29,765 nucleotides of DNA from Patescibacteria group bacterium (GTDB taxonomy: Bacteria; Patescibacteriota; Minisyncoccia; Phycocordibacterales; UBA1006): positions 1 through 29,765 of the forward strand of contig JAGQMO010000011.1 in assembly GCA_020428615.1 (NCBI GenBank). The letters are read 5' to 3'. The notes under the pieces are model-generated. The model did not search any database. It was not told where the DNA came from and saw only the letters and a list, made by a program, of their open reading frames with translations. Below, one piece after another: positions 12,489-16,012 of the stretch (positions are counted from its first letter, which is position 1; each line of letters starts with the position of its first letter). A program made the position numbers and the translations under genes.

Positions 12489-12513
12489 AAAAATAAAAGC
12501 CTATTTGGCTTTT
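12489..12513 (-). terminator. Intrinsic terminator of pilB
   Basis: AAAAGCC-aaata-GGCTTTT followed by ATTTTTT on the minus strand, overlapping the stop codon. Confidence 0.65.
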
Positions 12514-14618
12514 GTGAGTGTATCGTGGTGTTCAATTTCTTCTCGGACACGCCGCAGTTTTTGAGAAGCATCCATGCTCGGGTTCTTTTTGGCATGTTCA
12601 TGTAACTCACCAAGATCATCCGCAAGGCGCGTAAAGGTTTTGTGTGTTTCGGCAAAATCTTCTCCGTCATCAAATATTGCTTCCGCTTGACCATATTTGA
12701 GAAGTTCTAAGATAGTTGTTTGTACTTCTCTAATATCATCCTTGATATCCCAGTCTGGATTTACCGTTTGTTTATGCTCAAGCTTTTTCAATCGATCAAT
12801 GAGCATCGAGAGTTCAACACTTTGTTTGGTTAGGAGCGCTCCTGGATTCATCGCCGGAGAATCAATAACTGGTGGTACGCTTTTTTTTTCTTGCAAAGTT
12901 GTTGTATGGTCGGTACCATCGGTATCATCAATCTCAAGATCAACTACTTTTTGTACTTCTTCAAAACTTGTCGTTCCATCAAGAATTTTAATTACACCGT
13001 CTTCCCGCATATTGAGTAATCCCTGTTTCTCAGCAACTTTTCGTACTTCTTGTTCAGAGGGTTTTTTGTTTAAAAGTGCTTCAATATGTTCATCGGTAAT
13101 AATGGCTTCAAACAATCCTACGCGGCCTTTGTATCCAGTCCCGTTACATTCTTTACATCCCTTACCTCGCGTGAGTGTAATTTGTTGGTCGGGGTTCAGC
13201 CCATATTCATGAAGTGGTTTGTTATTGTTCGCAGCTTCTCTCAAGATGGCTCGAATAATGCGTTCCTCTTCTTGGTTGGGATCCTCTTGTTCAGCGCAGT
13301 GTTTGCACACTCGCCTCACTAAACGTTGTGCAAGAGATACTGAGAGTGCAGCAGCAAGAATTTGAGGAGAAACACCAAGATCCAGGAGGCGCGGAATAAC
13401 CCCAGCGGCACCATTCGTGTGAAGGGTTGAAAATACCATATGTCCCGTGAGAGAAGCATTCACCGCAATATTTGCTGTTTCAGGATCTCGAATTTCCCCC
13501 ACCATGATAATATCAGGGTCTTGTCGCAACGCAGCTCGCAAACCTGAAAGAAAATCGTAACCTTTTTTACGATTTACTTGAGTTTGACTGATTCCCTCAA
13601 GGTGATATTCAATTGGATCTTCAATGGTGAGTATTTTCACATCAGGTGAGTACACCTTGCTCATGAATGAATAGAGAGTTGTGGTTTTACCCGAACCTGT
13701 TGGTCCCGTTGTTAAAATCATACCGTTTGGTTTTGCGATTTCCTTCATGAGAATTTCATACAAACGTGGCTCAATACCCAAATGCTCAACGCCCACTCGG
13801 ATATTATCTGGATTTAAGATACGCATCACAAACGATTCCCCATAGGCACTTGGAATAACCGATACGCGAACTTCAATTTCTTTATTGTCAAAATCAATAG
13901 TAAAACGTCCATCTTGAGCGTTCTCTGTTTGTGTCAATTTCATTTCAGATAATAACTTGATGCGAGAAAGGAGTTTTTTATAAGATTCATGATCAAATGT
14001 TGTAATATCTTGAAGCACTCCATCTTGACGAAAACGCAACCGTACCTGTTCGTCTTGCGACTCAATATGAACATCGGATGATTCGGTCGCAATCGCTCCC
14101 CCAAAAATCACCTCCATAAGTTCTGTTGTCTTTTTTACATCTTTATTGTTAATAACCTGAGAAATTTCATCAGCAATATCTTGATTTGTTTGAATTTCAT
14201 CAGCAATACGCTTGAGTTCATCGGTTGAAATATCAAGCATCCCTTCATGTGACGAGCGTGCATAGGAAACATCAGCATAACGTTCCCATGCTTTCTCTAG
14301 ACTGCGTGTTGAAACCAAATGGAGCCCGAGATTATAATCTTTCTCGAGTTTCGCAATGACCTTTTTCGTTTCAGGAAGATTGGGCGATTTAATTCCTACA
14401 TACAGGTCTTTTCCAACAATTTTAAAGGGGGCTACAAATGCACGCCGAGCTTCTTGTTCATCAAGCGTAGTGAGCGCGTCTGTTTCAATAGTCGTTCCGG
14501 TCAAATCAATGTATGGCAGTTTAAAACGTTCAGCAATGCGTTGCACGAACGATTCTTCTTCCTTTTTTCTAATTTCGTCTATCTTCTTCGCTTGTTTGGT
14601 GTTATCAAAGTCGACCAT
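12501..14618 (-). CDS. pilB: Type IV pilus assembly ATPase, PilB/GspE family, with C-terminal extension (705 aa)
   Basis: ASDVHIE-like ESSDVHIE, Walker A GPTGSGKTT, Asp box TIEDPIE, Walker B DPDIIMVGEIRD, His box STLHTN, and two CxxC motifs. ATG 14618 follows TATACT-N9. Confidence 0.85.
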   Translation of the reverse strand: MVDFDNTKQAKKIDEIRKKEEESFVQRIAERFKLPYIDLTGTTIETDALTTLDEQEARRAFVAPFKIVGKDLYVGIKSPNLPETKKVIAKLEKDYNLGLHLVSTRSLEKAWERYADVSYARSSHEGMLDISTDELKRIADEIQTNQDIADEISQVINNKDVKKTTELMEVIFGGAIATESSDVHIESQDEQVRLRFRQDGVLQDITTFDHESYKKLLSRIKLLSEMKLTQTENAQDGRFTIDFDNKEIEVRVSVIPSAYGESFVMRILNPDNIRVGVEHLGIEPRLYEILMKEIAKPNGMILTTGPTGSGKTTTLYSFMSKVYSPDVKILTIEDPIEYHLEGISQTQVNRKKGYDFLSGLRAALRQDPDIIMVGEIRDPETANIAVNASLTGHMVFSTLHTNGAAGVIPRLLDLGVSPQILAAALSVSLAQRLVRRVCKHCAEQEDPNQEEERIIRAILREAANNNKPLHEYGLNPDQQITLTRGKGCKECNGTGYKGRVGLFEAIITDEHIEALLNKKPSEQEVRKVAEKQGLLNMREDGVIKILDGTTSFEEVQKVVDLEIDDTDGTDHTTTLQEKKSVPPVIDSPAMNPGALLTKQSVELSMLIDRLKKLEHKQTVNPDWDIKDDIREVQTTILELLKYGQAEAIFDDGEDFAETHKTFTRLADDLGELHEHAKKNPSMDASQKLRRVREEIEHHDTLTKAK

Positions 14619-14658
14619 ACTGACAACAGTATACAACAGACGACTTTTAAATGATATG

Positions 14659-14685
14659 AAAAAATCCTCTCGGCGAGGATTTTTT
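14659..14685. terminator. Intrinsic terminator ending the leftward ncRNA
   Basis: AAAAAATCCTC / GAGGATTTTTT stem with T-tracts on both strands. Confidence 0.75.
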
Positions 14686-14688
14686 CTT

Positions 14689-14860
14689 CTTGAGAACAGT
14701 AATCTCTAAACAAACAGAAAAAAACTTTAAAATAAAGGATGACTATACTTCAACGAGATATTCAGCGGAGTCCACTACGAGGGTGGGAGCCAACTATTCC
14801 TATCCGGATAGCCAAATTCGCGAGATCCGATTGTTTAGAGATTACCATTTTCAAGGTACT
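14689..14860 (-). ncRNA. Rod-shaped ncRNA, 6S RNA (ssrS)-like candidate
   Basis: 25-bp closing stem (14855-14831 with 14713-14689, two G-U pairs and one mismatch), a central bubble, inner helices and an apical CCAC/GUGG hairpin. Bounded by a promoter and a terminator. Confidence 0.55.
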
Positions 14861-14866
14861 GTCGAT

Positions 14867-14894
14867 ATCCTATCATAAAGATATTTTTTGTCAA
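14867..14894 (-). promoter_or_regulatory. Proximal promoter of the ncRNA
   Basis: TTGACA (14889-14894) - N16 - TAGGAT (14867-14872), with extended TG. Predicted TSS near 14860, 5 nt before the closing stem. Confidence 0.65.
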
Positions 14895-14973
14895 GTTGCT
14901 TTCTCGTACGCAAAGCAAGGCAACACGTAGGATAATAACACCCCTAGTGAGGAAATGCTATAAACAGTTGTGT

Positions 14974-15002
14974 ATAATATGTGCATAACTTAATTTTGTC
15001 AA
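14974..15002 (-). promoter_or_regulatory. Distal leftward promoter
   Basis: TTGACA (14997-15002) - N17 - TATTAT (14974-14979). Confidence 0.6.
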
Positions 15003-15043: not shown

Positions 15044-16012
15044 ATGTCAGATATACCAGTAACTCAACTTCTTGATCCTCAGCTTCGTCCTACAACGTGG
15101 GATGAATATATTGGACAGCAATCAATCAAAGATAATCTACACATTCTTTTGACAGCTGCAGCTCAAAGAAACCAACAACCCGAGCATATCTTATTCTACG
15201 GGCCACCAGGTCTCGGAAAAACAACCCTCGCCCACCTTATCGCAAAGGAAATGAATACTGCCATTAAAATCACTTCCGGTCCGGCTATCGAGAAAGTTGG
15301 CGATCTTGCCAGTATTCTCACAAATTTATCACAGGGAGATATTTTATTTATCGATGAAATTCATCGATTGAATACTAATATTGAAGAAGTTCTCTACCCT
15401 GCTATGGAATCAGGGGTGCTCGACATCATCATAGGAAAAGGACCCTCAGCACGCACGATACAGCTCGATCTGCCACCGTTTACCTTGATTGCAGCAACAA
15501 CAAAAATCGCTATGCTTTCAGCTCCGTTGCGCTCTCGCTTCTCTGGAGGAACCTTTAAACTTGAATTCTACACCCAAGAAGAAATGGAAAACATCATCAA
15601 TCAATCTGCAGGCAAACTAGGAATTCGCATTACCGATGGGGGTGTTCATGCAATTGCGAGTCGTAGTCGAGCAACTCCACGTACCGCAAATTATTTCTTG
15701 AAACGAGTCCGAGATTATGCTGAGGTACACAGTCGTGAAATTGATGAAGAAACTGTTCTCGAAGCGCTCAATATGATTGGGGTTGATGAGCTCGGGTTGC
15801 GACAAACTGATCGCAATGTCCTCTTGGCAATTATCGAAAAATTCAACGGCGGACCGGTTGGAGTAAAAACCATCGCAACCGCCACACATGAGGAGATTGA
15901 TTCAATCGAATCAGTCATCGAACCCTACCTCATCCAGAGAGGTCTCATCGAACTCACTCCTCGAGGTCGCGTAGCTACACAAAAAGCATACACTCATTTT
16001 GATAGAGGATAA
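15044..16012 (+). CDS. ruvB: Holliday junction branch migration helicase RuvB (322 aa)
   Basis: LRP..WDEYIGQ, GPPGLGKTT, FIDEIHRL and GPSAR motifs. ATG 15044 follows TATACT-N6. Confidence 0.97.
   Translation: MSDIPVTQLLDPQLRPTTWDEYIGQQSIKDNLHILLTAAAQRNQQPEHILFYGPPGLGKTTLAHLIAKEMNTAIKITSGPAIEKVGDLASILTNLSQGDILFIDEIHRLNTNIEEVLYPAMESGVLDIIIGKGPSARTIQLDLPPFTLIAATTKIAMLSAPLRSRFSGGTFKLEFYTQEEMENIINQSAGKLGIRITDGGVHAIASRSRATPRTANYFLKRVRDYAEVHSREIDEETVLEALNMIGVDELGLRQTDRNVLLAIIEKFNGGPVGVKTIATATHEEIDSIESVIEPYLIQRGLIELTPRGRVATQKAYTHFDRG

Follow-up and report, generated by a model that had tools for sequence, protein, structure and literature searches.

A single-copy four-armed RNA predicted beside ruvB in an order of Paceibacteria, without a match among known RNA families

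We describe here a structured RNA with a four-armed fold, which is near-universal in one order of Paceibacteria (CPR), is present in other orders of the class, and matches nothing in Rfam 15 or in the literature searched. It was found on the minus strand of a 29,765-nt stretch of DNA (contig JAGQMO010000011.1, hereafter the window), between pilB and ruvB. The gene with its strand and boundaries, its fold and covariation, its distribution and synteny, and its non-membership in known families are established by the comparisons presented below. Taken together, they point to a single-copy, independently transcribed structural RNA gene, the product of which would most likely be a trans-acting, protein-binding RNA. 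We give this statement as a whole a probability of about 0.55, trans action, protein binding and abundance being the parts of it that we infer. An order of more than 100 families has kept this RNA as a single copy at a single locus, with a strong promoter and a strict structure, which makes it almost certain that it is biologically important.

Results and Discussion

A predicted RNA gene on the minus strand

The window carries, on its minus strand, a near-consensus promoter, then a structured body and then an intrinsic terminator (Table 1), so that all three elements of the unannotated promoter-to-terminator non-coding RNA put forward in the original prediction were found in their place. The promoter is made up of the -35 box TTGACA (14894-14889), a 16-nt spacer and a TG-extended -10 box, TAGGAT (14872-14867), and relatives have TTGACA...TATAAT-like boxes at the equivalent position. 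The strong terminator that had been read directly after the body is the sole terminator-like site in the kilobase scanned, and each of the genus homologues examined has a different terminator hairpin at the same position. The start of the RNA near 14860, the ends of the transcript and its abundance are deductions from these sequence signals. The public sequencing runs listed for the locus are DNA only, from wastewater and activated sludge metagenomes, with no RNA runs among them, and for the RNA gene by itself no RNA run was listed either.

Folding had been suggested as a check, and it agreed with a structured RNA: a 204-nt stretch gave a minimum free energy of -62.6 kcal/mol (z = -4.44 against dinucleotide shuffles), and none of 200 shuffles was as stable. 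In the strand test, G.U combinations made up 14.3% of cells as against 2.4% for A.C, which identifies the minus strand as the transcribed one. This G.U excess, together with covariation in the genus alignment, where 23 of the 48 pairs predicted by RNAalifold show compensatory changes, bears out the selection at the RNA level that had been proposed. These data suggest an unannotated and independently transcribed non-coding RNA gene, maintained by RNA-level selection, with a predicted transcript of ~200 nt.

Table 1. Coordinates of the RNA gene, its structural elements and the flanking genes in the window
Feature	Positions	Strand	Remarks
Sigma-70-type promoter	14867..14894	-	10/12 consensus matches
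Structured RNA body, 172 nt	14687..14858	-	limits from covariance models
P1 closing stem, 5' strand	14831..14856	-	inner part AAUCUCUAAACAA is the class-conserved box
5' junction segment UCGGAUCUCGCGAAUU	14815..14830	-	decayed remnant of hairpin P2
P3 long arm	14740..14814	-	base UGGCUAU/AUAGUCA; AGGA box and UGG/CUG box with tandem G.U
P3 apical hairpin CCAC-CCUCGUA-GUGG	14786-14772	-	apical helix, 4/4 pairs covary
P4 remnant, mini-hairpin CCUUUA-UUUU-AAAG	14725..14738	-	8-9-bp hairpin in most of the order
U-rich linker, P4 to P1 3' strand	14714..14724	-	sequence read directly
P1 closing stem, 3' strand UUGUUUAGAGAUUACUGUUCUCAAG	14689..14713	-	self inverted match
Intrinsic terminator	14658..14686	-	12-bp hairpin and U-tract; begins 2 nt past P1
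ruvB	15044..16012	+	divergent from the RNA gene; conserved neighbour throughout the class
pilB	12501..14618 (start 14618)	-	downstream of the RNA and co-directional in the window

A closed four-way junction is the ancestral fold

The ancestral fold of the family is a closed four-way junction of the helices P1, P2, P3 and P4, joined by linkers of 0-4 nt, and members outside the window's genus each fold individually into this same junction. P1 is a closing stem of 25-28 bp across the order; its inner part reads AAUCUCUAAGCAAU/AUUGCUUAGAGAUU, and its inner 13 bp are conserved in sequence. P2 is a short 5' hairpin and P4 a 3' hairpin. The long arm P3 contains two invariant boxes, A-G-G-A/U-C-C-U and U-G-G/C-U-G, the second with tandem U.G/G.U pairs, and ends in a variable apical hairpin.

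Covariation supports this fold well beyond the genus. With 21 sequences aligned by MAFFT, the share of paired cells was 88.4%, compared with 39-52% when the partners were slid, and 45 of the 67 pairs had changed on both sides; none of 500 shuffles came up to these values. Covariation among relatives, which the original prediction had named as a check, was also seen when 53 sequences of many families were aligned to the model: 89.0% of cells were paired, 59/67 pairs were compensatory and all 8 helices covaried. An alignment of this kind is biased toward the structure of its model, and the independent MAFFT alignments show the same helices, with P4 less well aligned. Among the 53 sequences, the P1 helix was 93% paired with compensatory changes in 18 of its 21 pairs; P2 was 93.5% paired with all six pairs compensatory, and the seven pairs of P4 (helices 7-8) covaried without exception. 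In the boxes of P3, an A-U and two G-C pairs were invariant (53/53), and G149-C204 was unpaired in 7/53. The pairs that are invariant or nearly so lie in the inner helix of P1 and in the two boxes, AGGA/UCCU and UGG/CUG.

The copy in the window departs from this fold at its centre. Its closing stem is real and contains the two G-U pairs that had been reported, but of the 25 bp claimed for it (14856-14831 with 14713-14689) 24 positions are paired and one is an A.C mismatch. The smaller helices of the original prediction, UGGCUAU/AUAGUCA, the apical CCAC/GUGG and the mini-hairpin CUUUA/UAAAG, are all present. The AGGA box is paired with UCCU across the order and faces UCU/CUCG in the window's genus, where one pair has been lost and only GGA/UCU pairs. 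In addition, both side arms have decayed in this genus. The sister genera have a GGGAUC-UCGC-GGUCUU hairpin as P2; in the window's genus the P2 sequence has gone from GAUCUCGCGGUC to GAUCUCGCGAAU, leaving a 16-nt, mostly unpaired 5' junction segment that is near-invariant in the genus, CGG in the window for the usual CAG being the sole difference, and P4 has shrunk to CCUUUA/UAAAG. As a consequence of the decay of P2 and P4, the centre of the RNA resembles an asymmetric bubble. The rod and the size from which a 6S shape had been recognised are there, as is the 3' hairpin, but the bubble is peculiar to the window's genus and gives way to a four-way junction elsewhere. Judged from the compared sequences, the "6S architecture" is a derived, genus-specific look produced by two decayed side arms, and this 6S-like appearance of one genome was misleading and could be corrected only by comparison across genera. 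The decay itself shows either that the two arms are dispensable or that the function of the RNA has shifted in this genus.

Distribution and synteny

The RNA is single-copy in the 606-kb genome to which the window belongs. By DNA similarity it was found in 15 of the 17 genomes of the genus at 75-86% identity, with promoter spacers and terminator hairpins that diverge completely. A covariance model built from the genus (R1) detected one full-length copy in 41/55 genomes of the family, and a second model, built from other genera of the family (R2), detected the RNA in 121 of the 151 order genomes sampled, representing 106 of 132 genera, with scores of 51-110 bits and one copy each but for one tandem duplication. 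Both models match the window's copy over its full length (R1, 182.8 bits; R2, 67.9 bits). When five complete "negative" genomes were searched without filters at the ruvB locus, the RNA was recovered upstream of ruvB in all five (36-73 bits), which indicates that the "negatives" are largely filter losses. With default filters, 24/151 genomes of a class-wide sample were positive, including the window's genome and three more of its order, the remainder belonging to several other orders; a sample of the phylum outside the class gave only two weak matches. The RNA is near-universal in this order and extends to other orders of the class.

The tandem duplication is in genome G104, where the copies lie at L089:1501-1684 and 1700-1884 with scores of 97.9 and 78.5 bits, and P1 of the second copy has diverged.

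The RNA gene is invariably head-to-head with ruvB, ~100-400 bp apart, and pilB lies on its opposite flank. Across most of the order, and in the other orders as well, pilB and ruvB point the same way, with the RNA lying between the two on the opposite strand and converging on pilB. Among the loci compared (L069-L109), pilB is inverted, with the RNA upstream of it and co-directional, in three genera of the family (g1, g2, g15), namely the window's genus, a sister genus and one more.

Relation to 6S RNA and a second RNA in the order

6S RNA is rod-shaped, and its central bubble has relatively little structure; the start of the pRNA lies in the open 5' part of this bubble, and a 3' hairpin is often found on the side opposite (PMC8876501, PMC8414754). 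The original prediction likened the RNA of the window to this family, and the possibility to be weighed is that the four-armed RNA is a 6S-type promoter mimic that binds sigma-70 RNA polymerase, either as the sole 6S of these genomes or as a second, atypical paralogue comparable to Bacillus 6S-2 or the core-binding Ms1. Like 6S RNA (SsrS, RF00013), and especially 6S-1 of Firmicutes, it would be a stand-alone gene of ~170-200 nt with its own strong promoter and a terminator, and it has a long end-to-end closing stem, a long interrupted apical arm and a central hairpin on the 3' side. The two stems of the 6S rod, one closing and the other apical with small internal loops, correspond to P1 and P3, both with covariation support, and the 3'-side hairpin, opposite the 5' junction strand, corresponds to P4, reduced in the window to CCUUUA/UAAAG. 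In the window's genus, and there only, the mostly unpaired and near-invariant 16-nt strand on the 5' side of the centre adds to the likeness. The two tandem copies in one genome also fit a 6S-type RNA, as does the fact that Rfam 6S matches stay below threshold order-wide, so that the 6S slot is not formally filled.

Unlike 6S RNA, however, the four-armed RNA has no covariance-model match: RF00013, whose gathering score is 46.4 bits, gave no hit to it at E<=10 in the window or in the genome and four near-complete relatives, nor at E<=1 in 10 diverse members, and it was above cut-off in 0/151 order genomes. Furthermore, the 5' side of the centre, an open bubble in 6S RNA (PMC8876501, PMC8414754), is here the hairpin P2, which covaries order-wide within a tight, closed four-way junction, an open strand being confined to the window's genus. 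The sequences of its helices are conserved over more than 100 families, which is not the case for 6S, and the best 6S candidate of the genome is a different RNA with which it coexists.

This second RNA came from four sub-threshold RF00013 matches in the order, which scored 22-27 bits and were mutually homologous. A covariance model built from them (R3) found one copy in 122 of the 151 order genomes, at a different locus and co-occurring with the four-armed RNA. The second RNA is ~125 nt long and comprises a 17-bp closing stem, an open 5' bulge of ~20 nt, an apical stem GGGAGYC.../...GRCACCC and a 3' hairpin, a modelled layout that is that of canonical 6S-1. Its usual place is immediately downstream of ndk, and a beta-CASP/metallo-beta-lactamase gene follows slightly further on. 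The window's own genome (G000) has it at the syntenic site, C79:1877-1993 (locus L134:178-294), as a ~120-nt RNA with its own -10 box and terminator, which matches R3 with 21.9 bits (E = 3.8e-5 in the locus) and has no Rfam 6S match. A regular expression for its motif, GGGAG...CACCCACC, missed this copy, and it was synteny and R3 that located it. By layout and model similarity, the second RNA is clearly the better 6S candidate of the two, its 6S identity being putative in view of Rfam scores that are sub-threshold. This separate RNA, which has the canonical layout and the only Rfam-6S similarity and is present in most genomes of the order including the window's, weighs against a 6S role for the four-armed RNA. 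Thus, the 6S identity and architecture originally proposed are not supported, the four-armed RNA is not the 6S orthologue of these genomes, and a 6S-like action as a second RNAP-binding RNA seems to us unlikely.

In two genomes, R3 also gave a weak second match that lies downstream of the main copy at a distance of a few hundred nt: L116:1743-1925 in G135 (29.6 bits) and L114:1966-2076 in G102 (27.5 bits). They may be diverged tandem paralogues.

Other possible identities

A compact four-way junction with covariation support, whose gene invariably stands head-to-head with ruvB both throughout the order and elsewhere in the class, could also be a Holliday-junction-like RNA, acting as a decoy or regulator that binds, titrates or modulates the RuvA/RuvB encoded next door. 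If so, it would be a nucleic-acid decoy for a DNA-structure-specific machine, doing for recombination what 6S does for transcription, and it would have faced ruvB head-to-head since before the orders of Paceibacteria diverged. However, synteny by itself counts for little where genomes are streamlined, and the presence of pilB on the other flank is just as conserved. In addition, the conserved boxes are far from the junction, in P1 and P3, and two of the four arms have decayed in the window's genus. RuvA and RuvB recognise B-form DNA junctions, and binding to the A-form arms of an RNA is not expected. Since synteny is the sole support for a RuvAB ligand and RuvAB is built for B-form DNA, we rate this explanation as very improbable.

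We give similarly little credence to a ribozyme or to a new class of ligand-binding RNA. Four-way junctions form the framework of several self-cleaving ribozymes and riboswitch aptamers, and the multi-helix junction with invariant nucleotides found here is of that general kind, but these nucleotides are mostly Watson-Crick or G.U paired within helices and are not in junction strands or loops. No Rfam ribozyme or riboswitch matched, and the RNA has neither an expression platform nor a conserved downstream gene.

That the RNA might act in cis, as a leader or attenuator of pilB or as an antisense or cis element for ruvB, is suggested by g1, g2 and g15, in which it lies on the same strand as pilB and ~40 nt ahead of the pilB start. 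Yet between it and pilB stands a strong terminator, a P1 of 25 bp is not a plausible switch, and with respect to ruvB it is on the opposite strand with no overlap. Moreover, most of the order and class have pilB in convergent orientation to the RNA. Because the gene 3' of the RNA is convergent in most genomes, the RNA is not cis-regulatory and a general role as pilB leader is excluded, in agreement with the original prediction, which had held a mere leader to be unlikely; what chance is left to a cis-acting element is slight indeed. A riboswitch or cis leader was rejected on the same kind of evidence, with no conserved co-directional gene downstream and a P1 of 25-28 bp followed by an independent terminator.

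Scarcely any weight can be given, finally, to a divergent SRP RNA, to a Y RNA or to an element of the DNA itself, for example a MITE or a palindrome, to which one might be led by the 25-bp terminal inverted repeat around 120 bp, by the long conserved terminal stem, as in Y RNAs, and by an SRP RNA that is undetectable in these genomes, but which the lack of a helix-8 motif in the genome, of a partner for an SRP RNA and of a TROVE/Ro60 gene speaks against. A MITE is ruled out by the single copy, the fixed syntenic position and the G.U-rich covariation. For SRP RNA, RF00169 and RF01854 had no match at E<=10 in five genomes, and the partner proteins are absent. A regular expression for SRP helix 8, a motif marked by a GNRA loop and AGCA/AGG loops, returned only noise in the genome, and its conserved 22-mer had no approximate match with up to six substitutions. 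The Ffh M domain (PF02978) was missing from all six genomes searched and PF00448 from G000. Among 40 order genomes of at least 95% completeness, PF00448 gave seven weak matches, two of them nominally at the cut-off, which cover the P-loop only (~positions 2-58 of 196), and none of the seven is a credible SRP54-type GTPase domain. With neither an Ffh M domain nor a credible SRP54 GTPase, an SRP RNA would be left without a partner. For Y RNA, TROVE/Ro60 (PF05731) is absent from G000, a genome 92% complete. RNase P RNA and tmRNA were also rejected as identities: RNase P RNA was found elsewhere above its cut-off in five of five genomes, which shows that Rfam searches work in these genomes, and tmRNA was found by ARAGORN.

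As a side observation, the SRP/FtsY targeting pathway appears to be missing from this order, judging by G000 and the near-complete genomes searched (no PF02978, no PF00448 beyond P-loop fragments and no SRP RNA), and our search found no paper stating its loss there.

Possible role of the four-armed RNA

Non-membership in known families was consistent across searches. Rfam 15 scans of the window and of 10 diverse members, at gathering and at permissive E-values, returned chance matches only (miRNA, snoRNA, and Phe_leader and CRISPR-DR, both driven by the terminator). In the literature, no paper joined 6S RNA with "candidate phyla radiation", the one retrieved for "Patescibacteria" was irrelevant, and nothing relevant was found on structured RNA in Parcubacteria.

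We favour a stable RNA that would act in trans by binding protein, as a scaffold or decoy within a ribonucleoprotein. Its recognition sites would be the helical boxes of conserved sequence in P1 and P3; P2 and P4, the arms that vary, would only set the geometry of the junction. A strong promoter of constitutive type with a dedicated terminator, the high stability of the fold, one near-universal copy and conservation concentrated inside helices, combined with side arms that vary freely or decay, form a pattern typical of RNAs that proteins recognise by particular helical elements. Against this stands the class-wide adjacency to ruvB, which could point to a ruvB-linked role more specific than that of a generic ribonucleoprotein.

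The protein-binding, trans-acting mode favoured here is also that of Y RNAs (YrlA/Yrn1, bound by Ro60/Rsr), which likewise have a long terminal stem with a sequence-conserved helix and a multi-branched domain on top. In contrast to Y RNAs, the four-armed RNA has no T-loop- or D-loop-like motifs, does not lie beside rsr, has no Rfam match and is not accompanied by a TROVE/Ro60 gene. It also resembles the orphan non-coding RNA classes raiA motif RNA, OLE and ROOL, which are lineage-restricted, covary strongly, consist of several helices, carry transcription signals of their own and have a conserved gene neighbourhood and no known biochemical function. It differs from them in having no Rfam 15 match in sequence or structure, in its Paceibacteria host and in its four-way junction closed by a stem of 25-28 bp.

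Paceibacteria are ultra-small, uncultivated bacteria that occur in abundance and possess very few non-coding genes. Besides tRNA, rRNA, RNase P RNA and tmRNA, the four-armed RNA and the 6S-like RNA are two more widely conserved RNAs that had gone undescribed. If the partner of the four-armed RNA were identified, a ribonucleoprotein or a regulatory mechanism specific to this lineage would come to light, in bacteria on which almost no experiments have been done.

Two further promoter-like signals were observed in the window between the RNA promoter and ruvB. On the minus strand, ~110 nt upstream of the RNA promoter, is a near-consensus promoter-like site at 14974-15002 (TTGACA-17-TATTAT, 11/12), and it is overlapped on the plus strand, at ~14972-14983, by an extended -10-like sequence, TGTGTATAAT, that faces ruvB. 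The two sites at ~14972-15002 may represent back-to-back or overlapping divergent promoters, or may give rise to a longer precursor of the RNA.
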